A DNA stretch of 64,000 nucleotides from a virus, in IMG/VR virus record IMGVR_UViG_3300015195_000005, positions 7,314 through 71,313 of that record, one strand, 5' to 3'. Of this stretch, positions 1 to 61,937 are shown in pieces (the stretch's first letter is position 1; the number at the start of each line of letters is the position of its first letter). Under the pieces are notes generated by a model. It searched no databases. It was not told the origin of the DNA and was given only the letters and a program-made list of their open reading frames with translations. The translations under genes and the position numbers were made by a program.

Positions 1-3000
1 CACCACCCCCAAATCCCTTAACGCTCCCTGTTTGGCCTATCCCCATCTGCCCTGCCGATAGTCCTAGTTGAGCGGCCTTGTTAGCGTTCAGGGTTGCCGT
101 GTTAATATCCCACAGGCTCTGTTTAAGTATCACAGCCTGAGCATTTGCTACAGACAGCGGCCCAGCTACGTTGTTGATTATGAAATGGCCTGCCGTAACT
201 AAATCGGGATTATGACCGGCAGTACCTATGTCGATAAGATGATGAGCCAAGATAAGGGCTTTTTGGCCTACCCCATCTATGATCCCCTTGGAAGCATCCA
301 GATCCACTTGCACTCTAGTTTGTGCTTCGGCCTCTTGATACAGAGCCTGCGTAAGTGCCAAGTGAGCCGCACTTGCGGCTCTCTGTGCAGACCCATCCTG
401 CAACTTGGCAAGTGTACGCTCAGCATCTATGATCCCGTTATCTGCCTTGAGCACGTTATCTTTGGCAGTAACCAAAGCATCGTGGGCCTTGATGACACCT
501 ATGTTGTCGGCACTTATCAATTGCTGCCTAGCAAGCGCCTCTTGTACAGCAGCTAGGGCCTCTCCTGAGCGGGTCAGAGTGATCTGAGAAGCCTCAAGGG
601 CATCGTTAGCTGCTGCAACCTGCCGAGCATGGTCAGCAGGCATATTATTGACCTTCTGCTGAGCCGCTGCCTGATTGGTGGTTACATCCGTGACTTTCTG
701 CTGAGCAGTAGCAAGATCAAGTTGGGCCTTAGCTATATCTGCGGGAGATCCGCCCTCCTCAACCACCTTGTTGAGTTGCCATACGGCGTCAGCAGACTTA
801 GTTTGGGCATCCCTAAGAGATATTTGGGCATCAGCAACAGCATTGATGGCCTGCTGCAAGCTGATCCAATAGTCGATACCGTTTAACTTCTGTAGGGCCG
901 CTTGAGCAGTAGCTACCGCTTCAGTATCGGTTTCTATCTTGATCTGGGCATCTGCAACAGCATTTTGAGCAGTAACCAGAGCCCTTGCTTGATCTTCAGC
1001 GGCATGGTCAGCATCGAACTGAGCTATCTTTTCCGAAAGTCCAGCCTCAGTAGCAGTGTTACGGGCAACTGTAACTGCCAGAGTAGCCTCAACCACCTTC
1101 TGTGCAAGATCAGCCTGTGTCTGTAGAGCGGCATTATAACTTATAGTAGCATCAGCAACTCTGTTTGTATCCTCACCAACTATGACCAATTCTTTCGCAT
1201 AATCCTGTACTGCCTTGTTGGTAGCATCCAGATCCGCTTGAGTGGGACCGATAGTGCCGGAACCACTAGCAGCAGTCTTGGTATCTCCCAGAGCAGTCTT
1301 GACATCTGCAAGCACTCCACTGAGAACAACACCCTTCTTTGCAGCCAAGTCAAACACCGCTTGGACACTTATCCCCATGTCCGTAGCTATCTGGTTGGCG
1401 TTGGCTGTTGTAGTGCCGTAGCCATCCATCTGCCCCTGGAGGTTTGCTATCTCTGCTCTAAGCTCTTTGACATGCGTTTGAGGATCTTTGGTGCCAACTC
1501 CAAACGCATCCCACAATTTAGCCCCAGTAGTTTGTGTGGTGTCAAGCTCCTTCTGCAACTTCTGTAGCTCAAGTTCTGTTGCATGAGCAGCCTGCGAGTT
1601 GGCATCAGTAGACCCAGTGGGTTGTTGCTTGGCCCACTGATCGGCAAAGTCCTTAGCAGCCTTGGTAGCTTTTTCGGTTTCTGCCCTGGCGTGGGCCTGT
1701 GCCTGCTCCCAGACAAAGAAAGCAATAGCAACAACGCCCAGTACGGTAGTTAGCGTTCCTATAAGTCCAGTGGTGGTTACTACCGCCCCATCTGTTGCTA
1801 TAAGCGCACTATCAGTATCTACGAGAGCAACAACAACTCCCTCTTCAGCTACAGCCAAAGCCTCAGTAGCAGTTCGTACATTAGCTGTAGCCAGGGCCAG
1901 GGCATCCATAGCCTCTGTATCGCCCATAGCCCCTGTAGAGACTTTTGTAAGAGCCTCATCTTCAGCGGCTTGTGCCGCAGCCAGGTTGGCTGTTGCTCTT
2001 TCAAGTGCTTCCATAGCTATAGTAACTTCATCTATCGACAAAGCATGTTCTTGGGCGGCAACAGTAGTTCTCTGATGAGCCGCATACATGGCCTGTAGGG
2101 CACTTATCATCTGAAGTGCCCTTACGCCGAACAGGAGCACTACGCCACCTATCATGGTGAGAACACCCATAAGCAGCGTAAGAACAACAATTACCGCCTT
2201 CATGGGTTCAGGCAGCATCTTAAAGATGTCTGCAAGAGCACCAAGAACGGTATATCCTACTTTTAGTATGGGAAGCAGTCCTGACTCACCAAAACTAGTC
2301 TCAAGCTGAACCAACTTGTCTTTGAAAGATACGATGGCCCCAGCCACAGTATCGGTAGCGGCCTTATAGGAGTTGGTCAGGGTAGTAGAGTCCCCATACG
2401 CCTTGTTTATCCCGGTAAGTGTGTCTGTGTACGTCTTGCCGTTGACTGCACTTGCCGTCTGGGCCTGAGCAAGATCCAAGATGCCAGTAGCGGTTTGGCC
2501 ACTCTTGGCCCCGATGTCTGTAAGAACGGGGATGATGTTTTGACCCGACTGTTTGGCCTTCTCAAGATTGGCAAGCCAAGCAGTTAGAGTGCCGCCAGGA
2601 TCAGCTTGGAACGCCGCCTTGAACTGCTCCCCTGTCTGTCCAGAGATAGCGGCTATGTCCTTGAGTTTTGTGCCGCCCTGCGCCATAGCATCTACGAAAC
2701 CAACAGTGAAAAGTTGGAAGGTACCGGCCATACCACGGACACGGCCATCCAAGTTAGCCATAACAGCAGTCAAGGCCAACGTCTGTGTAACACTAAGGCC
2801 AATGGACTGACCCAAAGCCCCGCCACGATCAGCCATCGTCAGGAAAGCGGCCGTACCTCCAACTGTCTCAACAGCAGCAGCCTTGACGGCAGACGCCAGA
2901 TTGAGAGACTTATCTGCGGTAACACCGAACAGATCAGCTAACCGGCTAAACGGGACAGCCACAGATGATGCTGATGCCCCCGATGTGGTAGCCAACTCCT

Positions 3001-3427
3001 GAATGGCTGTTGATACTGTGGTTATGTCCTTCCCACGATAACCGAAGGTAGCTACTGTGGTGTTCAGATCATTGAAAGCAGTTATTGGTTGCTTAAGAGC
3101 AACAGCCGTATCTCTGATCTGACTCTCTTGAGCAGAACCAGCCGCTACGTTCTGCTGAAGGCTCTTGGTATTGTCGTAGGTGATGGCACTTATCTGTGCT
3201 GCTGCTGTCTGATAAGCCTCAGCAGCACTAGCAAAGCCACCTACGACCCCTAAGAGGGCATCCCCAACCTGCTTGAGCCCTATGCCAACTTGGTTGAGCC
3301 CATAGAAACTGCTCTGAGCGACTGTTACAAGCCCCTGTAGGACTCCCTGAGCCTGTTGAGCACCTACACTCATACCAGATGCGTCTAGGGTTATGACGGC
3401 CTTCATGTTGCTCAGGATGTCGCTCAT
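1..3427 (-). CDS. Tape measure protein (runs off the window edge, 3' partial, >1140 aa)
   Basis: ATG at 3427 overlaps the TGA of the upstream ORF (ATGA). It begins MSDILSNMKAVITLDASG. The frame was open where I spot-checked both ends and the ORF track misses it because it has no stop in the window. Ala/Gln/Thr-rich helical composition, a hydrophobic segment near 2100-2270 and its position after the tail chaperone fit a TMP. Confidence 0.9.
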   Translation of the reverse strand, partial: MSDILSNMKAVITLDASGMSVGAQQAQGVLQGLVTVAQSSFYGLNQVGIGLKQVGDALLGVVGGFASAAEAYQTAAAQISAITYDNTKSLQQNVAAGSAQESQIRDTAVALKQPITAFNDLNTTVATFGYRGKDITTVSTAIQELATTSGASASSVAVPFSRLADLFGVTADKSLNLASAVKAAAVETVGGTAAFLTMADRGGALGQSIGLSVTQTLALTAVMANLDGRVRGMAGTFQLFTVGFVDAMAQGGTKLKDIAAISGQTGEQFKAAFQADPGGTLTAWLANLEKAKQSGQNIIPVLTDIGAKSGQTATGILDLAQAQTASAVNGKTYTDTLTGINKAYGDSTTLTNSYKAATDTVAGAIVSFKDKLVQLETSFGESGLLPILKVGYTVLGALADIFKMLPEPMKAVIVVLTLLMGVLTMIGGVVLLFGVRALQMISALQAMYAAHQRTTVAAQEHALSIDEVTIAMEALERATANLAAAQAAEDEALTKVSTGAMGDTEAMDALALATANVRTATEALAVAEEGVVVALVDTDSALIATDGAVVTTTGLIGTLTTVLGVVAIAFFVWEQAQAHARAETEKATKAAKDFADQWAKQQPTGSTDANSQAAHATELELQKLQKELDTTQTTGAKLWDAFGVGTKDPQTHVKELRAEIANLQGQMDGYGTTTANANQIATDMGISVQAVFDLAAKKGVVLSGVLADVKTALGDTKTAASGSGTIGPTQADLDATNKAVQDYAKELVIVGEDTNRVADATISYNAALQTQADLAQKVVEATLAVTVARNTATEAGLSEKIAQFDADHAAEDQARALVTAQNAVADAQIKIETDTEAVATAQAALQKLNGIDYWISLQQAINAVADAQISLRDAQTKSADAVWQLNKVVEEGGSPADIAKAQLDLATAQQKVTDVTTNQAAAQQKVNNMPADHARQVAAANDALEASQITLTRSGEALAAVQEALARQQLISADNIGVIKAHDALVTAKDNVLKADNGIIDAERTLAKLQDGSAQRAASAAHLALTQALYQEAEAQTRVQVDLDASKGIIDGVGQKALILAHHLIDIGTAGHNPDLVTAGHFIINNVAGPLSVANAQAVILKQSLWDINTATLNANKAAQLGLSAGQMGIGQTGSVKGFGGG

Positions 3428-4397: not shown

Positions 4398-4440
4398 CCC
4401 TGCTGCTTGGACTTTCGGAAACTGCTATGAGGCGATAAAC

Positions 4441-6628: not shown

Positions 6629-7020
6629 TGGACTGGCTCTATCTCTGCTCGTGTCTCCATAGAGCGGTCAGGATGCACATACTGGATCACGAACTTTCGG
6701 TTATCTACAGGGTTGATGAACCAATCCCCTTTTTGCAGGTCATCATCGGGCATCCCGACCATGTACTTCTTCAGATGCTCTCCTGCACCTACCCCTGGAG
6801 ACTGCTCGTACTGCTCTCTTCCCTGTACCCCAAAGAACCTACGCTTAGGGGGAAAGATACGGGGTGACCCTGAACGGGTCACACCGCCAGCGTTATTGGT
6901 TTGTTGCGTAGCAGGACGGTTTATCTGCACTAGCGTCCCATAGAAACGTATAATCATACTAGTATTACGTTGAGCAAGTATCTGCTCCTGGGATACATAG
7001 ATACCGTCTGCTGTGGACAT
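6625..7020 (-). CDS. Head closure / head-tail adaptor
   Basis: Probable start ATG 7020 overlaps the upstream stop (ATGA). DDDLQKGDWF beta-barrel pattern and synteny. Confidence 0.6.
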   Translation of the reverse strand: MSTADGIYVSQEQILAQRNTSMIIRFYGTLVQINRPATQQTNNAGGVTRSGSPRIFPPKRRFFGVQGREQYEQSPGVGAGEHLKKYMVGMPDDDLQKGDWFINPVDNRKFVIQYVHPDRSMETRAEIEPVQ

Positions 7021-8117: not shown

Positions 8118-8717
8118 TTATTCCTCGACTTTCTTGATAGACCAGGGCCGCTCAGCACGTGCCCGCTTCATACTTTCGGAAATCTTCTGCTTCCACTCTG
8201 CGCTGAACGGCGCTCGCTTCTTGCCAAGGTGGCCTGCGGCTATCTTGGCCCGCACTTCTGGTGGCCGTGGGATACCACGCAAGGCGGCTGCTCGTTTCTC
8301 ATTAACTTCAGGATCAAATACTTGCTGCGCCCTGGCTTCTCGAACTTTGATCAGCGATTCTTCCGAGTGCTTGTACCCACTTGAGCCTCTGCCGCCTACT
8401 GTCTCGTTCAGCAAGTCGGCACCATCAAGTAAATAGTCCTCTATCCACAGCCGTTCCTCCTCATCACCGTCTACGAGAGCTACTTGAGCAAGTAACACGG
8501 CCTCGGGCCGCACACCTTCAGCAAGTAGCTCTCGCACCCAACTTGAAACTTTGGACGACCTGCCATAGTTCGCCGCAGCTACGTGGCGATACAGACGATC
8601 ACGGACAGATTGCTGAGTCTGCCCAACATATCGGGCCGCTCCTGTCCGTAGATCTTGCAGGACGTACACGTTCACCTTTCCGACATTTTCGATTGGCATA
8701 TCACTAGGATACGCCAA
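8118..8717 (-). CDS. Free-standing GIY-YIG homing endonuclease with NUMOD3 repeats
   Basis: VY-x10-RYVGQT, conserved R and E...E..WI, then GYKHSEES / RPPEVRAKI / FSAEWKQKISESMK NUMOD3-like repeats. Confidence 0.85.
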   Translation of the reverse strand: MAYPSDMPIENVGKVNVYVLQDLRTGAARYVGQTQQSVRDRLYRHVAAANYGRSSKVSSWVRELLAEGVRPEAVLLAQVALVDGDEEERLWIEDYLLDGADLLNETVGGRGSSGYKHSEESLIKVREARAQQVFDPEVNEKRAAALRGIPRPPEVRAKIAAGHLGKKRAPFSAEWKQKISESMKRARAERPWSIKKVEE

Positions 8718-10598: not shown

Positions 10599-12602
10599 TC
10601 AGCCGTGAATCCTGCGAACCCTCTCATCTGCATCCTTCTTGTTACCCTCATCAGGCATGTTGGGAGCAGGCGTAGGCGTGTTGTGATCCTGCTCCACGGT
10701 GGAACGCCTGACTGCCTGAGGGAACTTGGCCCTAAAAGCCGCTTCGTACTCATCCCGCAGAGTGCTAAGGGTTTCAGGATCGTCACCAACCCTGTCTAAG
10801 AGCCGCTCAATCTTCTCAACATCCACAGGGGAGCCCCCACCAGGGATCGTCTTGGACTTGGCGTACATATCGAGCACATCAGCCCGCAGTTCCTTGACAT
10901 AAGCCTCGCCCGCAGCGGCCTTGGGAGTCAATTCAGCGATGTGTTGAGACACTTCCCCCATCAGCATCACGAACGCCTCCTGACCCTCTTCAGGGGCCGC
11001 TGTGACCTTCTCCACGATGGACCGTGGCAATGACATCTTGGTCATGACGGCAAGAACCGCTTTCTTGGACATCTCATCTCCTTCAGGGTGGGCGCTCTTA
11101 TCTTCGTGGGCATGGCTGTGTGTCACATCGGTATCGCTGGCATCGTGGTTGTACCCAACAGCATCAGTATGGTTATGGAAGTGGCTGTGAGTGGTATCGG
11201 TAGTTGGATGATTATGAGAATGACTGTGACCCTTAGCCAACTTGGCAGCCTTGGACTCCTCAGTATCATCGTCCTCTGCACCTTCGGCTTCGCCAAGTTC
11301 CTCGATCAACTGCTTGATCTGATCCTGTGCCGTATCAATGAGCTTGTCACAGTCATCATCGTTATCTGCCTCGATAGCCCCGTCCAAGGCGCTCAAGGTG
11401 CCCTCAAGCTGCACAGCGATGACAGCAGCACCAGAAGTATCCTTGGCAATAGCATCTGCCAAATCTGCCAGCTTGGCCTTGACAGCATCCCGCTTAGCCT
11501 TGATTTCCGAAACTCTGGACGAGGTATCGGCAGCCCGACCAAAGCACAACGGGGACGTGTCCTCACCGGGGGTGAAGCTCCAAACGAGATTCTGCTCGTC
11601 CTTCCATTGGAACCGACCATCCTCTTCCCGCAACTTGTGGCTACGAGCAGCCTTGACTACCGCCGCTGGCATCTTGGGGGTAGGAACCTTGCTGCCCTCA
11701 TCATGTCGCAGCCCAATAACCGAAATGTGCTTGGTGTTGGCGCTCTTGACGATGGCCTCGATCCCAGCAGCCTTGGATACCTCGGCAAAATACTGAGCAC
11801 CAAGGAACACTTGCGAAAGCTCGTACATATCCTTCGCATCATCAAGATCCCTGGTGCATTTGACAGCCTTGGCATCACTTTCGGAAACTGGGACCGGCCA
11901 GCCCCAATCGTCCTCTTCATCAGAGTCGGGATCGTAGTAAAGCCCCTTCTCATGTCCCTCAGAACAGAACCACCAAAATCCCCAGTCATGCTCCTTACCG
12001 ATCGTACAGGCCGACTTACCCAACATTACGCCAACTGAGACAGCCCAGTTAATACCAAACTCAAGGTTCTCGATAAACTGTTCGTTGGCAACAGTACGGG
12101 GGATATAGACATCGTTGTCAAGGAAAGTAGCCGTTACTTCTTGCCCGCTATCGGGGTCAGCAACCTTGATCCTGCTGTTAGCAGCATCAAAGATGCGTCC
12201 AACAGCCAACTTGGTGTAGTCATGACCCACCATGTAGGACTTGCCGATAGGTGAGTATGGATAAGGAAGTTCCGCAAACCCCTTAACCGCAGAGGTACGG
12301 AACCTATCATCATCCCTATCGAGCAGGTCGTTGCATGAATGGGTAGTGAAACAGGCAACCTCATCGGCACCCACTGAACGAAGAGTGAACTTGTTGATCT
12401 TTGCCAACTGCTCTTCTGACGGAACAAACAGGGACGGAGAGATAAGGCCCCCAGTTGAGGCTTCCTTCTCCTCTACATTGGCAAGCCGCAACGTAGTAAC
12501 ACGCTTGTCGATCCCCTTACGGGAAGTATCGCTATCCTGCGGGGGACTACCTACAAGCAGATCAGTTAGCGAAGTCTCAGGCCGCTTGCGCTTGATAGTC
12601 AT
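10599..12602 (-). CDS. Prohead protease-scaffold fusion
   Basis: N-terminal protease-like region (VGHD, VGRIFDA, AVSVG, YELSQV) with a Cys/His insert, then coiled coil, a His-rich tract and a helical scaffold C-terminus; between portal and capsid genes. Confidence 0.75.
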   Translation of the reverse strand: MTIKRKRPETSLTDLLVGSPPQDSDTSRKGIDKRVTTLRLANVEEKEASTGGLISPSLFVPSEEQLAKINKFTLRSVGADEVACFTTHSCNDLLDRDDDRFRTSAVKGFAELPYPYSPIGKSYMVGHDYTKLAVGRIFDAANSRIKVADPDSGQEVTATFLDNDVYIPRTVANEQFIENLEFGINWAVSVGVMLGKSACTIGKEHDWGFWWFCSEGHEKGLYYDPDSDEEDDWGWPVPVSESDAKAVKCTRDLDDAKDMYELSQVFLGAQYFAEVSKAAGIEAIVKSANTKHISVIGLRHDEGSKVPTPKMPAAVVKAARSHKLREEDGRFQWKDEQNLVWSFTPGEDTSPLCFGRAADTSSRVSEIKAKRDAVKAKLADLADAIAKDTSGAAVIAVQLEGTLSALDGAIEADNDDDCDKLIDTAQDQIKQLIEELGEAEGAEDDDTEESKAAKLAKGHSHSHNHPTTDTTHSHFHNHTDAVGYNHDASDTDVTHSHAHEDKSAHPEGDEMSKKAVLAVMTKMSLPRSIVEKVTAAPEEGQEAFVMLMGEVSQHIAELTPKAAAGEAYVKELRADVLDMYAKSKTIPGGGSPVDVEKIERLLDRVGDDPETLSTLRDEYEAAFRAKFPQAVRRSTVEQDHNTPTPAPNMPDEGNKKDADERVRRIHG

Positions 12603-14798: not shown

Positions 14799-15536
14799 TT
14801 ATGCTATCCCACAAGTAATAGTCAAAGTCCACGTACCACCAGTCTTAACTCCAAGGTTTTGGACAAAACGGTTCAGACACTCCAAGGCAGTAGCTCCGTT
14901 GTCAACAACCCACTCCTGCCAACCAGTGCCCCACTCCCCTACTCCACCTGTAAATGCCGCAACCCACTGCATCTTGTTGGGAGAACCCCCTGTAAGGGTC
15001 GCAGAGGTAACCGTAACGAGCACCTTGTTGGTAGCTGCCTGAAGGGCCGTTTGGGACTGTGTGGCCGCAGTAGACGAGTCGCCAACCCCAACACGAGCCA
15101 ATCCAGCAAACTGTCCAGTCGGATGCAAAATGGTACAAGTAACTGTGGCGCTGGCAGTGGCGTTAACCGAAAGAGTAAAGCTCACTCCCGCAGACACAGA
15201 GATGATGGTGGCCCCAAGAGGCACACCGGCCCCTACGACTACAGAGCCCACATCAGTAGCCAACGCTGAAGCATCAGTGACCACAGCACTAGTGTTGGTG
15301 GTCACACAACTAGCATCAGCACGGCCAAGATAAGTCCCTGTGCCAGCTATCAGGGCCGAGATACGAGTGATACCGGTAAGTACGAGCAGATTGCGCTCAA
15401 GAGTGATTATCTCGTTGGGTGGCTTACCAGAGTTATAAGCCTCGTCGGTATCCCACTTTTGACAAGTGGTTTGTGCATACCAAGGAGCATAGTCAATCTC
15501 TTGTACATCAGATTTAGCATCAAGCAGGATAGTCAT
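14799..15536 (-). CDS. Virion structural protein (fibre/decoration-like)
   Basis: Thr/Gly/Ala-rich; VGVGDSSTAA..SQTALQ and WQEW...LNR motifs seen in phage structural proteins. Confidence 0.6.
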   Translation of the reverse strand: MTILLDAKSDVQEIDYAPWYAQTTCQKWDTDEAYNSGKPPNEIITLERNLLVLTGITRISALIAGTGTYLGRADASCVTTNTSAVVTDASALATDVGSVVVGAGVPLGATIISVSAGVSFTLSVNATASATVTCTILHPTGQFAGLARVGVGDSSTAATQSQTALQAATNKVLVTVTSATLTGGSPNKMQWVAAFTGGVGEWGTGWQEWVVDNGATALECLNRFVQNLGVKTGGTWTLTITCGIA

Positions 15537-35175: not shown

Positions 35176-35187
35176 AAGATGTACGAT
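35159..35187 (+). promoter_or_regulatory. Promoter with ATAAGTTAT palindrome in the spacer
   Basis: TTGACA-17-TACGAT. Confidence 0.75.
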
Positions 35188-45837: not shown

Positions 45838-45971
45838 CCCGTACCGAGGCTATTGCTAAGGCCATCTATCATCTTGAGCGAGCAGAGACACTAGGTAAGG
45901 ATTGGCGTCTATCAGAAATAAAGATAGCCAAGACATACCTAGACTTGGCAACCCTGCTGCCGCCAGACTGA
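45834..45971 (+). CDS. Small hypothetical protein (45 aa)
   Basis: Own translation MTRTEAIAKAIYHLERAE...; coupled at both ends (ATGA, TGATG). Confidence 0.55.
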   Translation: MTRTEAIAKAIYHLERAETLGKDWRLSEIKIAKTYLDLATLLPPD

Positions 45972-47080: not shown

Positions 47081-47192
47081 GTAGATAGGAGGGTTGGCCC
47101 TCTCTTTACATCTATCTGAGGATAGATACGGCTTGCTTTCCGAAACCATGCTATGTATTCTGTTACCTATGGTAGCGATGGGGAGCACAGAA

Positions 47193-47805: not shown

Positions 47806-48400
47806 TCAGCAGACCCGGCACCGGAACGGTTGCCTCCGATCAAGCCATATCCTTGTGATCCCTGGTACTTCGGACAACCGTTCCTAGAGTCTTAACTTCT
47901 AGCCAAGACCGGCAAGGGCGAAGAGGGGCATCCCGAGGAGTTGTCGATTCGGACAAATGCCATAGAACAGGCAACTGGGCTCTACCGTCCGATCGCACGG
48001 TAGGTAGAAGGCAAGAGGGGCCGCTTCCACCGAGCGGTCCCTCTTCTGCGTCCGGGGTTATGTCGCTCCGAAGGTAACCAAATGGCCGGTTTCCGAAAGA
48101 AGTACTGGTCAAACAACAAGTGCCCCCGATCCTTGCGGACACATGGGGGCACTTGGTAAATTCACTCCCACCACCACAGCCCACCACAGAGCGAGGAAGA
48201 CAGGAGGTAGCCTTATAGTACCACGGTGACGTAGAGCGCAAGCAAGAAATTGCTTTTTCACGCTCCGCACCCGTCCCGCCACTGGCGATGACCTTGGTAC
48301 AGCCTTGCCTCCGCTGAGACTTTCCAAAGTCTCCGAGGCAAGAGAAAACCCCCAAACATACCAAAGCCCCCGATCTCCAAGGATGGAGTGAGGGCCTTGG
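47806..48400 (+). ncRNA. Candidate large structured RNA / rep leader (~600 nt)
   Basis: No credible + strand ORF; many helices, e.g. 47823-32/47875-84, 47982-88/47997-48003, 48013-25/48033-45, 48117-27/48145-55, 48305-11/48335-41; starts just after a promoter. Confidence 0.5.
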
Positions 48401-48437
48401 TACTTTGATTTTTCCACAACCAATAGGAGATTACCTG

Positions 48438-48779
48438 ATGACAACCCACAAGTCAAGCAGCATCGTTCGGCGTAGCCGACCGGCGTTTACCACCATCCCA
48501 GTAAAACTATTTGAAGCCCTGGAGTGGGGAGACGTAAGTATTGCCGCTCCAACTCTTTATGCACTGTTGGGCACTTATGCCGACAACACAACTCACAATG
48601 CTTATCCAGGGCAAAAACGTCTAGCTGAACAGATGGGGCTAACTGATCGTCACATCCGACGCCTGCTCGCTGAACTGAAGAAGACAGGATGGCTCGAAGT
48701 TCGCCGCAGAAGAAACAAGACCAACATCTACACCTTGCGGGATAAGCCACGGAGACAGTCCGCCAATCCCCGTAACTAG
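48438..48779 (+). CDS. Winged-HTH replication-initiator-like protein (HTH_36-like), short
   Basis: FTTIP...LYALL..YAD.....YPGQKRLAEQMGLTDRHIRRLLAELKKTGWL...N.Y.L; RBS AGGAG. Confidence 0.8.
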   Translation: MTTHKSSSIVRRSRPAFTTIPVKLFEALEWGDVSIAAPTLYALLGTYADNTTHNAYPGQKRLAEQMGLTDRHIRRLLAELKKTGWLEVRRRRNKTNIYTLRDKPRRQSANPRN

Positions 48780-49582: not shown

Positions 49583-49858
49583 ATGGTGGGATTCTGGCGG
49601 TGCTCTGCCCCTATGCCCATGCCAGGCTTTGAGGGCCGTGCAAGGTTCTATCGGCTGGTAGACGATAACCAGCATGAGGAGAACGAGGCTGACATAGCCT
49701 TACGGGAACATAACCGTACTATGAGATTGGCCCGAGAAGCACAGCAACAAGAGAAAGACAACTGGATCGAGTTCCAAGAGTTTCGGAAAGCGGGTGGGTA
49801 CAAGCGATGGGTTCCTACAAGCCCTGTCCCATCGAGGGATGCAAGTGGTGGGGCGTGA
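49583..49858 (+). CDS. Hypothetical protein
   Basis: 91-aa ORF, helical C-terminal half. Confidence 0.5.
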   Translation: MVGFWRCSAPMPMPGFEGRARFYRLVDDNQHEENEADIALREHNRTMRLAREAQQQEKDNWIEFQEFRKAGGYKRWVPTSPVPSRDASGGA

Positions 49859-49964: not shown

Positions 49965-50291
49965 ATGACTGCCAAGATAAAGGGTGTAGGCCCAAATGTG
50001 CCCACACATACGAACAAGTTAGGGGCCGGGCAATCTGATATCCCTTACCGTTTCGATCTAGTGGATGCCAAAGCCATGTTTGCCATGACAGAGGTACTAG
50101 CCCAAGGAGCAGCTAAATATGGCCAAAATAACTGGAGGGGCATACCGATAGAAGATCATCTGAACCATCTCGTCATGCACGCCTATGCTTATCTAGCGGG
50201 AGATAGGACAGACAACCATCTTAGTCATATTTGTTGCAGGGCTATATTTGCACAGGGTGTCGAAGCTCAAGGTGGCCCTACCTCTAGGTGA
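49965..50291 (+). CDS. dATP/dGTP diphosphohydrolase-like protein (DUF5664)
   Basis: RFDLV...VLAQGAAKYG.NNWRG....HL.H....HL.H..C. Confidence 0.8.
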   Translation: MTAKIKGVGPNVPTHTNKLGAGQSDIPYRFDLVDAKAMFAMTEVLAQGAAKYGQNNWRGIPIEDHLNHLVMHAYAYLAGDRTDNHLSHICCRAIFAQGVEAQGGPTSR

Positions 50292-50331: not shown

Positions 50332-53300
50332 ATGAGCTTAGATGCCCAGATCATCTCCCTAGTAGTACGCAAACCCGAACGCCTGGTACTTTTACAGCAG
50401 CAGGGCGTTACCGCAGATGATCTACAACCCCCTTACGATCGTCTGTGGGGCTACATCCTCCGTATGAAGAGAGATCACGGCTCTGTACCCTCCAGGGCCA
50501 TGATAGAGGCCCGCTACGACTCTGTTCACTGGCCCAGAGTGCTTGAGCGGGACATCCCCCTGATAGTCCACCATCTGAAAGAGCGTACCCGGTTCAATAA
50601 GTTTCTAAACCTCCTGGGTGAGAGTGCTCGCAATTGTGCGGAGCCAGAGGACATGGAGGACACCCTCCAGATGCTCATGGGGGAACTGAATCAGTTACAG
50701 ATGTCCAATGGGCAGCCCAGTTTGGTCAACATCGCCAGTCCTGAGTATCGGGCGCACATAGTTTCGGAAATTACACATCGACGTATGGGTCGGGCACAGG
50801 GCTTACCTACCGGGTTGCCGACTCTTGATGCTGTAACTGGCGGGTTGCAACGTCAACGCATGGTTGTAGTCATTGGTAGAACGGGCACGGGGAAATCATG
50901 GGTTGACCTTCTCTTTGTGGCAGAGGCCATACGATCAGGGGCCAAGGTCATCTTGTATCCCCTTGAGATGTCCCTGGACGAGACAGCCATGCGGCTCTAC
51001 ACCATCTTCTCTCAACGACTGTTTGGCGGCTCTAGAGTGCTCAGGAACTTGGAACTTACCAAGGGCCATGTGTCCAAGCGCAAGTTTCTCCAATTGCTTG
51101 ACGTGCTGGAGAACCAGTTTAACGGCCAACTGCTTATCTCAGATGTCGGGCGACTTAACACTCCCTATACTGTAGAGCGGATAGAGGCTGAAGTAGAGAT
51201 ACACCAGCCGGATATGTTTTGGGTTGACTATCTTACGCTGCTAAAGGCCCCCAACCCAGGAGGCGGTGCAGATGACTACAATACCGTAAGAGCATTGTCT
51301 TCAGGGATCAAAGGGATTGCGACCCGTCATAACTGTTTTGCAGGACCAACACGGTTCCTTACGGCTGATGGAACCAAAAATCTTAGAGAGATGACTAATA
51401 GCTCCGTCAAGGTCTTGGGAGCTACCGGAAGTTGGGTAGACGCCACTGTTGAATCTTTCGGCACTCAAAGGCTGTGGGAAGTAGTGGTCAGGCGCAAAGA
51501 TCACCGGATGAAGTTCCTAACTACCAAGGAACATCGTTGGTTCATCGTTCGACGGTCTAAGGGAGGTTATGCCAAGGTAGAAGTCACTACTGACCAGCTT
51601 GAGCCAGGGAATAAGCTGTCCAACAACTCAGTTAAGAGCAAGGGGTATGACTTATCTTCGTGGGGCGTATCTCGCGGGATAACTTATGGAGATGGATGTG
51701 TACCAAAAGGAAAAAGGTCTGCCCATACCGTATTATGTGGTGACAAGGATGCTCAACTACTCAAATGGTTCCCGCTATCTCCAACCAGGCAACTAATTAC
51801 AGGGCTAGAAGTTGGTTGCCTACCTCGTTACTTCAAGCACCTTCCGTCACTATCAGAAAGTACCTCGTATCTTTACGGATGGCTAGCTGGTTACTTCGCC
51901 GCTGATGGCACAGTCGGCAAGGATGGCACATGCCGTATTGGTTCTGTCGATAAAAAGGATATCCAGCACGTCAAAGACGTTTGTAGCTTGCTGGGCATAG
52001 AGGCTGGGCCAATAGGCGAGATAGTTAATACTTCTCAGTGGGCCGCTTCTCATGTAATGTACACAACGCACCTTGCTCTACGGTCCTTGAGGCGTGACTT
52101 CTTCCTGATAGATGAACACCTACGCAGATGGGAAGAAGCAATGGCTCGTCCCGGTAAAATCTCGCAACACTGGTCTGTCGATAGTGTTCGTTCAACCAAT
52201 AGATATGAAGAAGTGTTCTGTGCTGTAGTGCCCAACGGGCAGGCATTTACCTTGGACGGAAACATCCTTACTGGTAACTGTGTGGGTGGGTGCTCTGCTC
52301 AAGTCAACAGGGAGGCTCTACGGGTACGCTCGTTCCTTCCCCGCTTAGAGCACATAGCCTATGGAGACTGTGTTCGAGGCGATCAGATCATCCAAACTGC
52401 TGATGGCATGGTAAGGCTACAAGATGCTGTAGGCGTACCTATGAAGATTTTTGACGGAACAGGATGGGAAGAAGGCATAATTACTTATGCCGGTATGAAA
52501 CAAGAGTGGGAGATACTTTTTGAAGATGGCTCTCGACTAATAGGTAGTAAAGATCACAAGTTATGGGCACAAACAGGTAGTGAAAACTTTGAATGGAGTA
52601 AGTTCACAGACTTACAACCTGGAGACTATGGGTTGGTAGGCGGGGAGTTTGAATACGGAATAGATACTGTTCCTTATCTCACTCAATATACACCTAAGGG
52701 ATTAGGAAACAAAGATAATCGAGGCAACTTTGTACGGACACGACTTGTGAACTGTCTAACTGTGCCATTGGCTGAGGTTATGGGCTTGTTGGTAGGCGAC
52801 GGCGCTTTGAAACAAAACAATACTTGGAATCTGGCTTTGGATCTCAAAGATCAAGACGTGGCTGACTACTTCTGCCAATCTATCTATAATATATTCGGGT
52901 ATTTACCTAAACTTCGCCCATCTTACAGTAGCGCCAAGTGTCAATATGCTCATGTTAACGCCAAAGGCATCATTCATCAGATGGTGCAGATGGGTATGCA
53001 AAGAGTTTATTCTTGTCAACGATATATTCCTCATACTATTTTACGCTCTACTCCAGAGATGCGATCTGCATTTTTGCGGGGTCTGTTTGAAGCAGATGGA
53101 TCTTTCAACGACAAGTGCATTGATTTGGCTACTACATCTGGACAACTGGCTCAAGAAGTGCAACTGGTATTAAGAACGCTTGGAATTGACAGTACCGCTA
53201 GTTGTAAAGAACGACGTTGGGGTATGCCTCAGTCTGATGGATACCGACGTTCAGATATATGGCGAGTGCGTATTCGTAAAGAGATGTGGCCGTTTTTTGA

Positions 53301-53703
53301 GAATGAAATAGGATTTATCTCTCAGCGTAAGAAAACCCTGTTGGTTCAACGCACCGAGTTTGGCAAACGGCCGCACACTTATTCCAAGCCATTTACACGG
53401 GGGCTGGAACCGATGCGTATAGTTTCTGTAACATCTACTGGCAACATGGCCCCAATGTACGATGTAGTAAAGGCAGCAGCGGGTAGTCATAAGTTTTCAC
53501 TAAACGGCTTTGTTGTTCATAACAGCATCGGTCAGGATGCTGACCAAGTTATCCCGATTAATCGCAGAGGAGATAAACTATACTATGCTTTAGTCAAAAA
53601 TAGGGGTGGCCCAGAAATAGGTAAAGTTACTTGTGACTTTCTGGTCAACTCAGGTATAATTAGAGAGATAGCGGAACAGGAGGACACGGAAGATGACAAC
53701 TAA
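50332..53703 (+). CDS. dnaB: DnaB-like replicative helicase with two inteins
   Basis: Walker A GRTGTGKS, LEMS, VDYL, SAQVNRE, D|SIGQDAD, KNRGG. Confidence 0.93.
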   Translation: MSLDAQIISLVVRKPERLVLLQQQGVTADDLQPPYDRLWGYILRMKRDHGSVPSRAMIEARYDSVHWPRVLERDIPLIVHHLKERTRFNKFLNLLGESARNCAEPEDMEDTLQMLMGELNQLQMSNGQPSLVNIASPEYRAHIVSEITHRRMGRAQGLPTGLPTLDAVTGGLQRQRMVVVIGRTGTGKSWVDLLFVAEAIRSGAKVILYPLEMSLDETAMRLYTIFSQRLFGGSRVLRNLELTKGHVSKRKFLQLLDVLENQFNGQLLISDVGRLNTPYTVERIEAEVEIHQPDMFWVDYLTLLKAPNPGGGADDYNTVRALSSGIKGIATRHNCFAGPTRFLTADGTKNLREMTNSSVKVLGATGSWVDATVESFGTQRLWEVVVRRKDHRMKFLTTKEHRWFIVRRSKGGYAKVEVTTDQLEPGNKLSNNSVKSKGYDLSSWGVSRGITYGDGCVPKGKRSAHTVLCGDKDAQLLKWFPLSPTRQLITGLEVGCLPRYFKHLPSLSESTSYLYGWLAGYFAADGTVGKDGTCRIGSVDKKDIQHVKDVCSLLGIEAGPIGEIVNTSQWAASHVMYTTHLALRSLRRDFFLIDEHLRRWEEAMARPGKISQHWSVDSVRSTNRYEEVFCAVVPNGQAFTLDGNILTGNCVGGCSAQVNREALRVRSFLPRLEHIAYGDCVRGDQIIQTADGMVRLQDAVGVPMKIFDGTGWEEGIITYAGMKQEWEILFEDGSRLIGSKDHKLWAQTGSENFEWSKFTDLQPGDYGLVGGEFEYGIDTVPYLTQYTPKGLGNKDNRGNFVRTRLVNCLTVPLAEVMGLLVGDGALKQNNTWNLALDLKDQDVADYFCQSIYNIFGYLPKLRPSYSSAKCQYAHVNAKGIIHQMVQMGMQRVYSCQRYIPHTILRSTPEMRSAFLRGLFEADGSFNDKCIDLATTSGQLAQEVQLVLRTLGIDSTASCKERRWGMPQSDGYRRSDIWRVRIRKEMWPFFENEIGFISQRKKTLLVQRTEFGKRPHTYSKPFTRGLEPMRIVSVTSTGNMAPMYDVVKAAAGSHKFSLNGFVVHNSIGQDADQVIPINRRGDKLYYALVKNRGGPEIGKVTCDFLVNSGIIREIAEQEDTEDDN
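51334..52278 (+). mobile_element. Intein DnaB-1 (315 aa, Cys1, LAGLIDADG)
   Basis: RHN|CFAGPTRFLT ... TKEHRW ... ILTGN|C; LAGYFAADG. Confidence 0.9.
52369..53523 (+). mobile_element. Intein DnaB-2 (385 aa, Cys1, LAGLIDADG; visibly more AT-rich DNA)
   Basis: YGD|CVRGDQII ... SKDHKL ... VVHN|S; LRGLFEADG. Confidence 0.9.
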
Positions 53704-54429: not shown

Positions 54430-55454
54430 CCAATATACGGCCTAAACCTAAAACTGCTGCTGAACTTGGGATCGGAGATGTACGTCAAGTCATAGACGAA
54501 GTATACATATTGGACTACGAGATAAGAAGTGGTGAAGCCCACTTTATCTGTCCCTCACATGATGACAAGAAGCCATCTGCCCACGTCAACCTTGTAACTG
54601 GATATTGGAATTGCTGGAGTTGTCAGGGTGGAGGAGATATCATATCTCTGGGATGTGCGATCCTCAAGAAGAAGCGGCTTGCTGTAGAGGCCGCTCTGAT
54701 CCCCCGAGAGCCTGATGCGATACGTGCGGCCATAGTTAGGACCGTAGAGGCTCGTAGGGCCGTACAGACACCCGACAAAGATACCCAGACCAAAGATAGG
54801 GTCGCAGACCCCGACGAATACGATGTACGCCCTATGGATTATATGTACAATAGGGGATTTACCCAAGATACCCTGGATAAGTACGGGGTTAGGTATGTAC
54901 ACAGAACGTCAGTTAAGACACGTTCCAACAAGGACATGACTATTTATCACTCAGTAGCCGTTCCTATCTATGATGAGAGCGGCGCTAAGTTGCTTAGCTG
55001 GTGCTACAGGAGCACACCGGATAGCGCAGAGCATCAGCCTAGATACTTCTACTTGGCGGGAACCAGTACCGCTGATCTGCTGTTTGGACACCATTTGACC
55101 CACGATAGTCACACGGTGGTAGTTACAGAGGGGCCACTTGACTCCATGTTCGTATCTCAGGCTGGGCACCCTGCTGTAGCCCTGTTTGGAGCCTCAAACA
55201 ATCGTTCCCTGGTCAAAATCGGCAAGCTGGCAGAGTTTCGGAAAGTGGTTATCTTCGGGGATCGCAACGAAGCTGGGATAAATTTCAGTATCTCTACCGG
55301 AAAGTTGCTATCTGACCAGACATCTGTTAGTGTTGCTAGATACAGGCGGACCTGGGTAGGCAACGATCCCAACACGCTGACAGAAGATCAAGTCAGATAC
55401 GCAGTAGAACATGCGATCCCTTACAGAGCTTGGATGATGGAGTCCGAGCACTGA
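54426..55454 (+). CDS. dnaG: DNA primase (CHC2 zinc finger plus TOPRIM)
   Basis: CPSHDDKKPS...WNCWSC, RYFY, VTEGPLD, ALFG, GD.NEAG. Confidence 0.9.
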   Translation: MTNIRPKPKTAAELGIGDVRQVIDEVYILDYEIRSGEAHFICPSHDDKKPSAHVNLVTGYWNCWSCQGGGDIISLGCAILKKKRLAVEAALIPREPDAIRAAIVRTVEARRAVQTPDKDTQTKDRVADPDEYDVRPMDYMYNRGFTQDTLDKYGVRYVHRTSVKTRSNKDMTIYHSVAVPIYDESGAKLLSWCYRSTPDSAEHQPRYFYLAGTSTADLLFGHHLTHDSHTVVVTEGPLDSMFVSQAGHPAVALFGASNNRSLVKIGKLAEFRKVVIFGDRNEAGINFSISTGKLLSDQTSVSVARYRRTWVGNDPNTLTEDQVRYAVEHAIPYRAWMMESEH

Positions 55455-56994: not shown

Positions 56995-57459
56995 GTGAGC
57001 ACAGTTACACTGACATTCAACGGTACTGCCGGTGAGATTGCCGACATCTTGGATAAGGTCCAAGGCACGACAGTCACCAAGGTCACCACAACCAAGACCA
57101 AGGCCCCCAAAGTTTCGGAAACCGAAGAGGTTGAAGATACCGAGGAGGACGAAGAGGTCGTCTGGACCGAGAGGAAGCTGGAGGGCAAGTCGTTTGGTGA
57201 ACTCAAAACCATAGCCAAGGGTCTTGACATCGACATCGAGGGCAAACGCTCGGCAGGGCTCAAGAAGGCCATCCTTGAAGCCTCAAAGCCCGAGGAAGAG
57301 GACGAAGAGGAGGAAGAGGAGAGCGAGGACGACGATTGGGAGGAGGAGGAGGAGGAAGAGGAGGAAGAGGAGGAAGAGGAGCCTCCTGCCCGTAAGCGCC
57401 CAGCTAAGAGGGCCGTTGCTGCCAAGAAGGCGCCAGCAAGAAGGCGCAGGGCTTCATAG
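56995..57459 (+). CDS. Acidic protein with Rho-N/HeH domain, poly-Glu tract and basic tail
   Basis: RBS AGGAG; LEGKSFGELKTIAKGLDI...LKKAILE; long E/D run; C-terminal ARKRPAKRAVAAKKAPARRRRAS. Confidence 0.75.
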   Translation: MSTVTLTFNGTAGEIADILDKVQGTTVTKVTTTKTKAPKVSETEEVEDTEEDEEVVWTERKLEGKSFGELKTIAKGLDIDIEGKRSAGLKKAILEASKPEEEDEEEEEESEDDDWEEEEEEEEEEEEEEPPARKRPAKRAVAAKKAPARRRRAS

Positions 57460-57606: not shown

Positions 57607-60600
57607 ATGACGATGTTGCCCCGAGTGGAGTTGCATCTTCATTAGCTGCATACAGACTTCTCTCTGTTGGATGGGCTAGGAAAGATACCCGCTTATGTAG
57701 AGCGGGCCAAGAGGCTGAACATTGCCGCTCTTGCGATCACAGATCACGGGACGATGGGCGGGGTGTTTGAGCACTACCGCACCTGTAGAGATGCGGACAT
57801 AGAGCCCATCATCGGGTTGGAAGCATACTTCGTACCTTCGGTTTCCGAAGCCCGTCAGTTCAAGAACGCCGAGCGGTTCCATGTGACCCTGCTTGCCAAG
57901 GGCGAGCAAGGATACCGAGTATTGAATGAGTTGAATACTGCCGCTCATAGCAACTTCTACTACAAGCCCTTAGTGGATCGTGCTCTGTTGGGGCAACTTG
58001 GAGAAGATGCTCAGCACCTTGTATGCCTGTCTGGTTGTACTGGTTCCAAGATAAGCCAACTGTGGATAGCACAAGATCCCACTTATGTTGACGAGATACA
58101 GTGGTGGCAATCTATTTTCCACCGGAACTTCTATCTTGAAGCCCAGTACCACAGCATAGATACCGACCAACTTGTCCTGGGTGGTATCTTGGAGACTCAG
58201 AGCCACACCAGGCTCAAGCATGTCTTTACCAACGATTGCCATTATGTCTCCAAACGAGATGGAGCCCCGCATGATGCGCTACTTGCCATCCAGACTGCTG
58301 CAAACATTGACGATCCCGACCGCTTTAGGTTTGACGGCAGCGGCTATCACCTGCGCAGTCGCCGTGAGCTATACAGAGTGGTTGTTGAAGCAGGCTACGA
58401 CCCAAGATGGGTTAAGAACGGCATTGAGAATTCCCTTAGTATCGCCCGTAGTTGTCATACACGGATCGCAGAGTGGGAAACACGGACTTGGCACATACCG
58501 CAGTATCCCGGCGCTAAAGATCCTGAGCGATTGCTCGTCAAGCTCGTTCGCACCGCTTTGGACGAACGAGGACTCTCGCAAGACCTTAGATATGTTCGAC
58601 GGGCCAAGCACGAAATAAGACAGATCAAAAAGGTTGGAATAGCTGACTTCCTACTTATCTGTAGGGAGCAGAATAGATGGTGTGCCACTCGCCCTAAGCC
58701 AATACGGGTGGGACCGGGCCGTGGCAGCGTGGCCGGTTCCCTCATAGGGTGGCTCATAGGGATGCACAAGATCGACCCTATCCGTCATAACACCCGCTTT
58801 GAGCGGTTCATAAATCCTGAGCGCCCCAAGATGCCTGATGTGGACACCGACTTCCAACCGTCCAGGCGTGATGAGGTTATCGAGCACCTGAAGCACCTGT
58901 ACGGAGCCGACAACGTGATCCAGGTTGCGGCCTATCAGACGATGGGGGTAAAGGGCACTTTCCGAAAGTTAGCCAGGGCACACGGCATGGACTGGAATGA
59001 GATCAACCGTATCTCTACCAAGCTGAATCCAGGGGGTACAGACGAGGACACCGACGACATATCTGTGTTACCTGCTGAAGTTCGAGAGAACTACCCTGAC
59101 ATACATGCTCAGATCCAAGCCCTGATCGGTACCAAGTCTGCACTGTCCTCACACGCCGCTGGACTGCTCATCTTCGCCCCTGACGACCCTGTGAAGGATC
59201 TTGTGCCGCAGATGTGGCTGACGGGTCAGAAACGCCTTGTAGCGGCCTTCGATCTGAAGTCCACCGAAAAGATGGGCCTGATGAAGATGGATGAGTTGGT
59301 GCTCCGCACCCTGGACACCATTCAGGTCTGCGTAGACATGCTTTCGGAAAACGGGATCGAGATAGAGCCTGACGACTGGATACCGGACGAGGAGGATAGG
59401 GACTCCGATGTGTATGCGATGCTTGGCAGCGGGAGGACCGCTGGAGTTTTCCAAATGGAAGGTAATACCAACACTAGAGGCATCCAAGAAGTCGGTTGCC
59501 GCTACTTCGAGGACATCGTTGCCACAACTAGCCTCTACCGAGCCGGTCCCTTGGGTGCGGGTGCCGCGACTCGTTATCTCGCCAACAAACGATCCAAAAA
59601 GATCAGAGTTGCACATGAATCCCTTAGACCCATCCTGGCTAATTCATGGGGGGAGATGATCTATCAGGAACAGATGATGGATATATGCCATGACATAGCA
59701 GGATTCAACTGGACAGATACCGATGATGTCAAGGAAATAGTCCGATTTAAAGACCCGGCAAGGATGCACGCTTACCGGCAGAAGTTTGTGGACGGATGTA
59801 AAAATCACTCAGAGTTGGATGAGAATACGGCCTTGGAGATATGGGCCATGATAGAGAGCCAGTCCTCATATCTTTTCAATCGTAGTCATGCTATAGCTTA
59901 CTCATACTTGAGCTATCAAACAGCACGGCTCAAGTATCTGTACCCGGTGGAGTACATGGCAGCGTACATGGCCACAGTAGATGCAGATACAGACGCCCAC
60001 AAGGCCAACCGCAACAAGGTGCTCAGCGAGGCGCATGAGATGGGCGTACATATCCTAGCCCCTGACATAAATCAATCGGGAATCCACATGACCTGTTGTG
60101 CAGACGACCAGAGGATAGGGCTCGTTAGGGGGCCGTGGATGAGATTTGGGTTTGTAGACCTGAAGGGCATAGGAGAGTCCAAGGCAGCCAAGCTGGTAAC
60201 TGCCAGGGACCAAGATCCTGTGGGCTTCTACGGGGTTCAGGACGTGGCTGAGGCCATAGACAAGCGCACTCTGGGCATCTTGGGAGACAGCGGGGCTCTG
60301 GCTTCTGTAGGCGGCCCCAAGGTCACCACACGCCAGATAGAGCAGTACATAGATTGGGATTTCTCAGATCGCATGGCCAAGTACCGACCCCAACTGCGCT
60401 CTCAGGTAAAGTTCCCCACCAAAGAAGGTCAGTGGGGGCAAGTGGCAGGGGAACTGATAGCCAGTGAATCACGTATGACCAAGAAGAACACGCACTTCAG
60501 AGTGTGGACTCTAAAGTGGTCACCTTCTGAAACTTTTAGAATCACGCTATGGGACAGCACATCAGGTATTTGGGACACGCCTATAGGCAGTATCCTGGCA

Positions 60601-60932: not shown

Positions 60933-60944
60933 CACAAGGAAAAA

Positions 60945-61154: not shown

Positions 61155-61381
61155 GTAAGCTACTTACTGATACTGAGAAGGAAGCTCTAGCACTTAGCGG
61201 GCAACTAGCTGGTCTACTCCGTAAGATCATAGGGGATGGGCCGCAAGCGGCTAACGACTGGGCTGAAGCTGCCATCCACATTCATAACATCCAGCACACG
61301 ATCATGTCTCAGGCAGCGGCCCGAGCCTACCCGCAAGAATTTCGGTTATTGGGACAGACCCTTGACAAGCGATCTAGCTAG
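61151..61381 (+). CDS. Small helical phage protein
   Basis: T..E......D..E....IH.IQ..IM...A.R.YP; ATGA overlap. Confidence 0.65.
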   Translation: MSKLLTDTEKEALALSGQLAGLLRKIIGDGPQAANDWAEAAIHIHNIQHTIMSQAAARAYPQEFRLLGQTLDKRSS

Positions 61382-61937
61382 GCTTCTACGAGGCAACCCC
61401 CGCATCCGCTTCGATGTGATTGTGGCTGACCCGCCTTATTCTTACTATGGACAGCAGGATAAATGGGGCGCTGCTTCAAAGTTTTACACAACCATGCCAG
61501 ATAAAGACATATGCACCTACTCAGTTTCCGAAAGATTATCTGAGACAGGGATCGTGTTCTTATGGGCTACAAGCCCCCGATTGGACTTTGCTGTCAAAGT
61601 GCTCAGGGCATGGCGTTTGTACTACAGGGGAGTGGCTTTCGTATGGGTCAAGACCAAGCAGGACGGCACTCCTATAGGGGCTCAAGGAGTACGGCCATCT
61701 ATCACTAAGCCCCTGTGCGAGTTTGTCATAGCAGGCTCACGGGTGAGTACAGGACGGCCCATGCCCCTGTCTGATGAGTCTATCTGTCAGACAGTGTTCG
61801 CACCCAGGCAAGAGCACTCACGCAAGCCTGAAGCGGTACAAGATAGAATAGAGCGCATGTACTCCAACACGCTTAAGCTAGAGTTATTTGCTCGTAGACA
61901 CCGACCAGGATGGGTCTGTGAAGGAGATGAGTTGTGA
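61362..61937 (+). CDS. MT-A70 family N6-adenine methyltransferase
   Basis: VADPPY, FLWAT, FVWVK, HSRKP, LELFAR; likely TTG start at 61362. Confidence 0.9.
   Translation: MTSDLARLLRGNPRIRFDVIVADPPYSYYGQQDKWGAASKFYTTMPDKDICTYSVSERLSETGIVFLWATSPRLDFAVKVLRAWRLYYRGVAFVWVKTKQDGTPIGAQGVRPSITKPLCEFVIAGSRVSTGRPMPLSDESICQTVFAPRQEHSRKPEAVQDRIERMYSNTLKLELFARRHRPGWVCEGDEL

Follow-up and report, generated by a model that had tools for sequence, protein, structure and literature searches.

Hyper-abundant palindromes lying within genes are a long-standing puzzle, as illustrated by HIP1 (GCGATCGC), which after decades has no agreed function. In cyanobacteria, this palindrome is found in genes at very high abundance and is under selection; it has no peptide, RNA or promoter role, and a function in chromosome structure is suspected (PMC5861425). 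Stoperators are asymmetric 13-mers located in promoters and short intergenic gaps and oriented with transcription (PMC9283540). Small Xis/MerR-like proteins such as D29 Gp36, BldC and RacA, known from an actinophage, Streptomyces and Bacillus, bind short repeated words, including words inside genes or scattered over part of a chromosome, and damp expression (PMC12266134). Here, we describe the palindromic word TTTCSGAAA (S stands for C or G and, below, W for A or T) in a stretch of 64,000 nucleotides of viral DNA, hereafter the window, corresponding to bases 7314-71313 of the 78,350-bp IMG/VR record IMGVR_UViG_3300015195_000005, which is estimated to be 81% complete. In this uncultured phage, probably of actinobacteria, and in some of its relatives, the word exceeds chance expectation by 20 to 100 times. 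The finding is real and strongly non-random, and it corresponds to a DNA-level signal under selection. By analogy, the closest described system is HIP1.

The window contains 19 exact copies of TTTCSGAAA; in dinucleotide shuffles, the average is 0.27 and the highest count 2. It also contains four copies of TTTCWGAAA, with 0.25 expected. In the full record, the S-centred copies number 24 and a reversed control word is absent. An order-3 Markov model predicts 0.21 copies for the whole genome, and TTTCSGAAA and its sub-words stand at the top of every ranking of over-represented 7- to 12-mers. Synonymous codons were also shuffled within each ORF (open reading frame), the protein sequence and the codon usage of each gene being kept fixed. 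This null yields 0.90 +/- 0.95 copies (maximum 5 in 300 shuffles), to be compared with 20 observed within ORFs. A first-pass annotation of the window had reported the word and named a codon-preserving null and a high-order Markov count as ways of checking it; the enrichment holds in both. The 19 S-centred and four A/T-centred copies that it had listed are all present, each S-centred one being exact. A search of the literature for the strings of the word gave no paper.

The copies reading TTTCCGAAA (TCCGAA on the + strand) are located, on that strand, at 1030-1038 in a tape-measure-like ORF, at 11504-11512 in a 667-aa ORF of the head module, at 15772-15780 within an ORF, at 28601-28609 in a divergent early region devoid of a confident ORF, at 31295-31303 in a small-terminase-like helix-turn-helix (HTH) gene, at 47137-47145, at 48090-48098, at 58959-58967 in the DnaE-like polymerase gene and at 61525-61533 in the MT-A70 gene. 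Those reading TTTCGGAAA, on the - strand, are found at 4413-4421 between genes, at 8174-8182 within an ORF, at 11879-11887 in the same 667-aa ORF as above, at 21080-21088 within an ORF, at 46173-46181 in a 305-aa ORF, at 49781-49789 in a 91-aa ORF, at 50762-50770 in the DnaB-like helicase gene, at 55236-55244 in the DnaG-like primase gene, at 57113-57121 in a 154-aa ORF and at 59342-59350, again in the DnaE-like polymerase gene. The W-centred copies, for which strand does not apply, read TTTCAGAAA at 18418-18426, 22431-22439 and 32958-32966, and TTTCTGAAA at 40811-40819.

From the occurrence of the word in different frames and in non-coding DNA, it had been suggested that selection targets the DNA. 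The full record bears this out and speaks against a peptide or an RNA as the target. All three frames are used, with 15 of the 23 genic copies in frame xTT-TCS-GAA-Axx (V/L/I-S-E), five encoding F-R/G-K/N and three F-P/R-K. ORFs of at least 100 aa contain 20 of the 24 copies, and copies are as dense within ORFs as between them. Both orientations are found in each genome arm, and no polarity is seen along the genome. The use of every frame and of both strands, the equal coding and non-coding density and the survival of the excess under the codon null all argue for a signal read in the DNA. Five whole IMG/VR relatives (G001-G005, portal identity about 50%; the phage studied here is G000) extend this argument. 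Among the 37 peptide positions of this phage that are able to encode the 9-mer, 20 (54%) actually do so, and the proportion is 48-49% in the motif-positive relatives G002 and G005; in the motif-free relatives, the figures are 0/8, 0/11 and 1/11. Furthermore, encodable positions are 3-5 times more frequent in the positive genomes (1.8-2.8 per 1000 aa, with 1.8 in this phage) than in the negative ones (0.36-0.55). Because the usage of encodable positions and their number are both raised, the force acts on synonymous as well as non-synonymous sites. Thus, the word is kept by a force on the DNA itself, which overrides synonymous codon choice and shifts amino-acid sequences.

When all 24 copies are oriented with C at their centre, the word appears embedded in asymmetric flanks, C-R-N-TTTCCGAAA-S-T, where R is a purine. 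On the 5′ side, C is found at -3 in 17 copies and R at -2 in 23; on the 3′ side, S is found at +9 in 22 and T at +10 in 16. The earlier statement that the flanks are usually S therefore stands for the 3′ side (22/24) but not for the 5′ side, where S is found in only 15/24. One-mismatch variants of the 9-mer are at about background level, except at the centre (the four W copies). A sister form, WAACCGAAA, is present 17 times in the genome, including 14 times in the window, where 0.58 are expected. Its flanks are those of the 9-mer, R-R upstream and S-T downstream, so that the common element is CCGAAA-S-T following TTT, AAA or TAA; CCGAAA preceded by other prefixes is at background level. The true unit is broader than first reported. 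The first-pass annotation had noticed a related form near 1672, 36030, 43583, 45051, 45694 and 63191, and all six sites were recovered within the wider set. In the window, the sister form reads AAACCGAAA at 1672-1680 on the - strand and at 36031-36039, 38060-38068, 39231-39239, 43584-43592, 45052-45060, 45695-45703 and 63192-63200 on the + strand. It reads TAACCGAAA at 11717-11725 and 15164-15172 on the + strand and at 6695-6703, 19993-20001, 36290-36298 and 61340-61348 on the - strand.

Taken alone, the 24 S-centred copies have a random-like spacing, with a coefficient of variation (CV) of 0.96. The 45 sites obtained by pooling S, sister and W forms, a pooling chosen post hoc, are spaced more evenly than random (CV 0.69, P=0.006), and sister sites lie farther from S-centred copies than random (P=0.03). 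Site spacing in G005 is likewise more even than random. Separately, another word of 4-S-4 build, ATAASTTAT, is present nine times in the genome (window positions 23803, 23870, 23923, 35165, 38494, 43799 and 56933, and others), with no W-centred copy; several of these copies directly follow TTGACA-like boxes, and none occurs in any of the five whole relatives. GAGATA/TATCTC is over-represented window-wide (139 versus 38 expected under an order-1 model), as is GGGACCA/TGGTCCC in this phage.

Portal homologues are plentiful in metagenomes, where the portal family comprises roughly 270 contigs. Relatives among viral contigs, designated by L-numbers like the sequences of the whole relatives, were found by alignment queries with the portal, a single-protein query having given none; a scan of a genome collection gave portal relatives that were all distant, from metagenome-assembled genomes of the Marinimicrobia type and others. 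Among the whole relatives, TTTCNGAAA is found 42 times in G002 and 34 times in G005, versus 0, 1 and 1 times in G001, G003 and G004. The enriched unit is shorter in G002 and G005, where TTCSGAA occupies 134 and 185 sites (5-10-fold enrichment) and where TCCGAA and TCGGAA each occur 200-293 times, compared with 20-27 times in the negative genomes. One-mismatch neighbours of TCSGAA are also raised, by 2-4-fold. With respect to motif-free G003, the W centre is enriched 3-5-fold and the S centre about 13-fold, and extension to the 9-mer adds a further 4-7-fold above the prediction based on the 7-mer. The enrichment in these two genomes is thus graded in a binding-energy-like manner. Under the codon-preserving null, 25-27 copies of TTCSGAA are obtained for 115-142 seen. 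This null is itself about six times that of G003, so the word has drawn both codon usage and amino-acid usage towards itself. In both genomes, sites are found in all frames and on both strands and are as dense outside ORFs as inside them. They have no polarity, be it along the genome or with respect to transcription, the sense/antisense counts being 67/82 in G002 and 65/65 in G005.

Nearer relatives, with major capsid proteins 87-91% identical, were also considered. L006, L007, L184 and L185 have zero copies, and L005 and L186 have only W-centred copies (7 and 3, respectively; S-centred 0). In addition, L011 is positive and L010, L012 and L017 are negative. Since nearer and farther relatives vary in having the S centre, the W centre or none, the trait is patchy on the family tree. 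L186 has three TTTCWGAAA sites, and L005 retains each of them at the orthologous position, in alignment blocks of 71-76% identity. The S-centred site at window 11879 is the counterpart of one of the three, with a serine codon that differs between the lineages (TCT or TCC); the motif-free relatives have unrelated sequence at this position. The word has no strand or frame preference, and individual sites can be conserved between relatives. As regards the expectation that close relatives should retain the word, the outcome is mixed: some close relatives are without it, two keep a W-centred form at conserved positions, and distant relatives are richer in it. Two contigs taken at one stage as distant positives, L024 and L028, were dropped because an unbiased k-mer ranking did not raise the word. 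A scan of viral contigs for two 9-mers within 30 bp gave mostly chance pairs or local tandem arrays rather than genome-wide carriers. L186 also has a palindrome of its own, TCAAATTTGA, present four times in 7.9 kb for 0.03 expected.

These features may now be compared with those of HIP1. In both cases, a short palindrome, over-represented tens to hundreds of times, is spread in genes, in every frame, and between genes, and neither palindrome acts through a peptide, an RNA or a promoter. The genome-wide excess of at least 15-fold is found here too (24 versus 0.21; 20 versus 0.9). As to the conservation of sites between relatives known for HIP1, the picture here is mixed, with three sites out of three in L005/L186 and one in common with this phage, but with G002/G005 near background. 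On the other hand, HIP1 is cellular and phylum-wide, has an even length of 8 bases and is methylated in its core. The word described here is phage-borne, odd in length and A/T-armed, with asymmetric flanks, it switches on, off or to a W centre, and no methylase tracks it.

What could read such a word? Several kinds of signal for a DNA-binding protein had been envisaged in the first-pass annotation. The general idea still gives the best reading, but the specific proposals (parS/Noc sites, stoperators, MT-A70 target) are not supported. We favour, tentatively and short of calling it probable, the explanation that the TTTCSGAAA copies have been selected as sites at which a small sequence-specific protein would bind the DNA and so mark or organise the phage chromosome. 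The recognition word would be short and nearly two-fold symmetric, have the core TCSGA/TTCSGAA and reach its greatest strength as TTTCSGAAA; a subset of one actinobacterial siphovirus-like phage family would keep it over the entire chromosome. In these phages, the strong 9-mer is met about every 2-3 kb, to which some members add hundreds of weaker 6-7-mers. The predicted reader would be a small DNA-binding protein that needs to find the phage chromosome at regular intervals; it could serve the phage as a nucleoid-associated protein, mark the chromosome or dampen transcription globally. Where control is needed, it would bind denser clusters of the word too, and a drift of its specificity by lineage would account for the differences in centre (S or W) and in reach (7 or 9 bp). 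A reader encoded by the host may be envisaged as well.

Several observations in other genomes are relevant here. The early region of G002 has dense intergenic clusters of the word, among which a 16-bp palindrome with two TCCGAA half-sites occurs seven times. This palindrome, TATCCGAATTCGGATA, and TTCCGAA words close by form operator-like clusters at G002 positions 8233, 21567, 22719, 28338, 28375, 29384 and 31376 (L032-L033). In G005, some copies lie in promoter spacers, just 3′ of TTGACA. Two unrelated viral contigs, G006 and G007, have head-to-tail arrays of the 9-bp word in and upstream of an HTH_17 gene. The arrays (ATTTCCGAA; L169:5600-6200 and L172) encode ISEISEISE, and the HTH_17 gene of L169/L172 adjoins a diversity-generating retroelement comprising a reverse transcriptase, bAvd and a target protein with an FGE-sulfatase-like end. 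Together with a conserved Xis/MerR-like protein, the clusters of G002/G005 and the arrays of G006/G007 point to a DNA-binding protein as the putative reader.

In the present phage, that Xis/MerR-like protein is the 87-aa winged-helix product of 44385-44648 (+ strand). It matches Pfam HTH_17 at E=0.004, short of the cut-off, and PHROG 66 ('excisionase and transcriptional regulator') at 1e-7. Orthologues of 72-87 aa are found in this phage and all five whole relatives, and their two sub-types match the motif state. It is the best candidate reader, though a weak one whose involvement we consider doubtful. The likeness to the Xis/BldC/RacA cases resides in the presence of such a small protein in this phage and in the tandem TTTCCGAAA arrays of G006/G007 at an HTH_17 gene. 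However, the known cases involve a few clustered repeats or about 25 sites near an origin, and in none of them do tens to hundreds of sites reshape coding sequences. Another winged-helix protein, of the HTH_36 family, was set aside as reader; it is found in G002, in G005 and weakly in negative G001, and these proteins are not alignable to the copy of this phage. Further small DNA-binding candidates are encoded at window 43959-44354, 45902-46819 and 48405-48779 and, on the - strand, at 31251-31880.

The idea of a DNA-binding protein has to be weighed against a series of difficulties. As the two sub-types of the Xis/MerR-like protein follow phylogeny too, their match with the motif state is confounded, and the 87-aa candidate does not have the same recognition helices in the three positive genomes. 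In tblastn comparisons of presence and absence over the six genomes, no gene for a DNA-binding protein was limited to the motif-positive ones. Positional conservation of the 6-mer between G002 and G005 is only weakly above background (9/24 and 9/52 versus 0.17). Moreover, a helix-turn-helix dimer would have very little room on a palindrome of 7-9 bp whose arms are one base apart, and the hundreds of sites per genome in G002 and G005 are, to our knowledge, far above those of any phage regulator. In this phage, finally, the word is unusually sharp, with 24 exact copies for about 14 with one mismatch (roughly 7 expected), and no local array of it was found. Its sharpness and the lack of local arrays look more like recognition by an enzyme than like a typical transcription-factor site.

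This last point leads to a first alternative, unlikely in our opinion, in which the word is the target of a phage- or host-encoded DNA enzyme (a methylase, another base-modifier or a nickase) and a high density of sites would be selected for the protection or processing that the mark or nick brings to the phage chromosome. Some type II enzymes discriminate the centre base of their target, as in CCWGG versus CCSGG, and a short odd-length palindrome with S/W discrimination has the shape of a type II restriction-modification target. The nearly all-or-none character of the word in this phage (24 exact copies, few with one mismatch) and the switch of the favoured centre from S to W between lineages also fit an enzyme, as does the methylated CGATCG core of HIP1, the closest analogue (PMC6604393). 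However, the graded enrichment of 6-, 7- and 9-mers and of one-mismatch neighbours in G002 and G005 is unlike strict enzyme recognition, and phages normally avoid restriction targets rather than enrich them. The MT-A70 methylase, which the first-pass annotation had suggested might modify the word, is not supported as its reader: the gene is private to this phage among the compared genomes, the most strongly enriched relatives G002 and G005 are without one, and no methylase family is common to the motif-positive genomes. Searches of G001-G005 with PF05063, PF01555 and PF00145 gave a single weak N6_N4 match, in G005, and nothing in G002.

Genes found by tblastn in the three positive and none of the negative genomes comprise a GGACT enzyme, a small holin-like membrane protein and weak short matches. 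The GGACT cyclotransferase belongs to a cassette (window 33005-36636) that also encodes an amidoligase (PF12224), a class-II glutamine amidotransferase (GATase) and a 272-aa protein; only the motif-positive genomes, G000, G002 and G005, have all four genes. This motif-tracking cassette was considered as a DNA-modification system and rejected. The Atlas model of the 272-aa member resembles metallopeptidases of the SprT/WLM type. Because this fourth member resembles SprT-type peptidases, the cassette would be concerned with peptide chemistry and not with DNA chemistry, and it looks like a peptide-ligase system, which further weakens the case for a DNA enzyme.

The absence of a phage DNA-binding-protein gene tracking the motif can also be read in favour of a host factor, for instance if the word were a Chi-like signal taming AdnAB/RecBCD; its patchiness would then follow host range. 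The dense and fairly even coverage of the genome is in line with this idea, and so is the positive-only small holin-like membrane protein, of a kind often tied to the host. The RecA, RuvC-like and PD-(D/E)XK genes carried by the phage indicate that recombination matters to these phages, and a palindromic 7-mer presents the 6-mer on both strands together. Nevertheless, we find this improbable, since known Chi sites are asymmetric, act on one strand and have polarity; here, the symmetric 7- and 9-mers are favoured, the 6-mers are non-polar, and longer A/T arms increase enrichment.

It may also be asked whether the word is a non-adaptive by-product of biased repair or gene conversion that turns near-matches into matches, in the manner of very-short-patch repair. 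Such a mechanism has been proposed for HIP1 (PMC5861425). It would agree with the fact that related genomes of similar divergence have or lack the word and with the turnover of positions between G002 and G005. Yet one-mismatch neighbours, instead of being depleted, are up 2-4-fold in G002 and G005, three sites out of three are kept between L005 and L186 at 71-76% identity, one of them common to this phage, and proteins are shifted 3-5-fold towards encodable peptides. No Vsr-plus-methylase pair was apparent in the methylase family searches. This origin appears very improbable.

An earlier suggestion was that of stoperator-like sites, through which an immunity repressor would silence a prophage. 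In Cluster A mycobacteriophages, whose hosts are likewise Actinobacteria, a single short word is dispersed in more than 20 copies (PMC9283540). A similar number of copies genome-wide, fitting a small phage protein as reader, is seen here in what is probably also an actinobacterial phage, and its relatives have operator-like clusters of the word. But the present word is symmetric at its core, 20 of the 24 copies are inside ORFs, orientation is random, also with respect to transcription, and no match to a tyrosine integrase (PF00589) or a serine recombinase (PF00239) was found in the record, itself 81% complete. No immunity repressor was recognised in PHROG and Pfam scans of the phage proteins, and the temperate lifestyle of stoperator-bearing phages is apparently lacking here. 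We thus regard stoperators as highly improbable. Primase start sites were rejected as well; the even spacing of about 1.7 kb fits, but the sites of G002 and G005 far exceed the need for priming, and we know of no primase that requires 7-9 bases. The consensus of parS and of the Noc-binding site is an even palindrome of 14-16 bp, with 4 bp between its TTTC and GAAA arms. The proposed role of the word as such a site for a ParB-family protein (partition, nucleoid occlusion or SMC loading) is scarcely credible, because, although the arms are alike, all 24 copies have a single central base, which would shift the half-sites by about 100 degrees round the helix, the sites are dispersed through genes without clustering near the origin, and PF02195 (ParB_N) has no match in the 78-kb record (81% complete), although it matches in 11 of 14 control genomes.

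The phage itself, with functions assigned from PHROG and Pfam matches, encodes structural and packaging proteins (portal, large and small terminase, tape-measure protein), replication proteins (DnaE-type polymerase, DnaB-like helicase, DnaG-like primase), recombination proteins (RecA, a RuvC-like nuclease, a PD-(D/E)XK nuclease), several sigma-factor-like proteins and the MT-A70 methylase. It also encodes WhiB, an Rpf-type transglycosylase and a DUF732 protein, which point to an actinobacterial host, at the level of Actinomycetota, as judged from these gene products. In the Atlas, the clusters closest to the Rpf-like protein come for the most part from Actinomycetota. A nucleotide search of a phage collection with 7.9 kb of the window gave no match, and protein searches reach only distant cultured phages, with no close cultured relative.

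Some other genes deserve mention. The large terminase (16097-19981), a helicase (38975-42829) and the DnaB-like helicase (50332-53703) are 1123-1294 aa long and share extra PHROG matches typical of inserted intein/endonuclease segments. Window 49965-50291 encodes the N-domain of a dATP/dGTP diphosphohydrolase (MazZ-like, PF18909), with no PurZ-like gene among the scanned proteins. Outside the window, a second WhiB-like match (41.9 bits; G000:C1:74588-74701, or L066:10589-10702) lies at the N-terminal end of a RuvC-matching ORF and may represent either a fusion of WhiB with RuvC or a small gene that overlaps the ORF.

The HIP1-like phenomenon is thus encountered in a 78-kb phage, whose S-centred, W-centred and word-free relatives are natural controls. 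These controls make the reader, protein or enzyme, discoverable by comparative genomics combined with a few binding assays. The codon usage and amino-acid content of a phage can thus be seen to shift under a signal in its DNA, which has a bearing on phage annotation, on k-mer-based host prediction and on the recoding of phage genomes. Going beyond binding sites for a small protein, it may be imagined, as a possibility that we hold with real doubt, that the lineage writes a private 'self word' into its own genes, under a selection strong enough for proteins to be recoded, and that through this word a dedicated reader would find or coat phage DNA, or tell it apart from that of the host, at any point of the chromosome. 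With equal reserve, the word and its reader would co-evolve fast, as reflected by the S centre, the W centre and loss, and would be a phage-borne counterpart of HIP1. If this were true, the 'self word' would give HIP1 a phage counterpart with a tractable reader.

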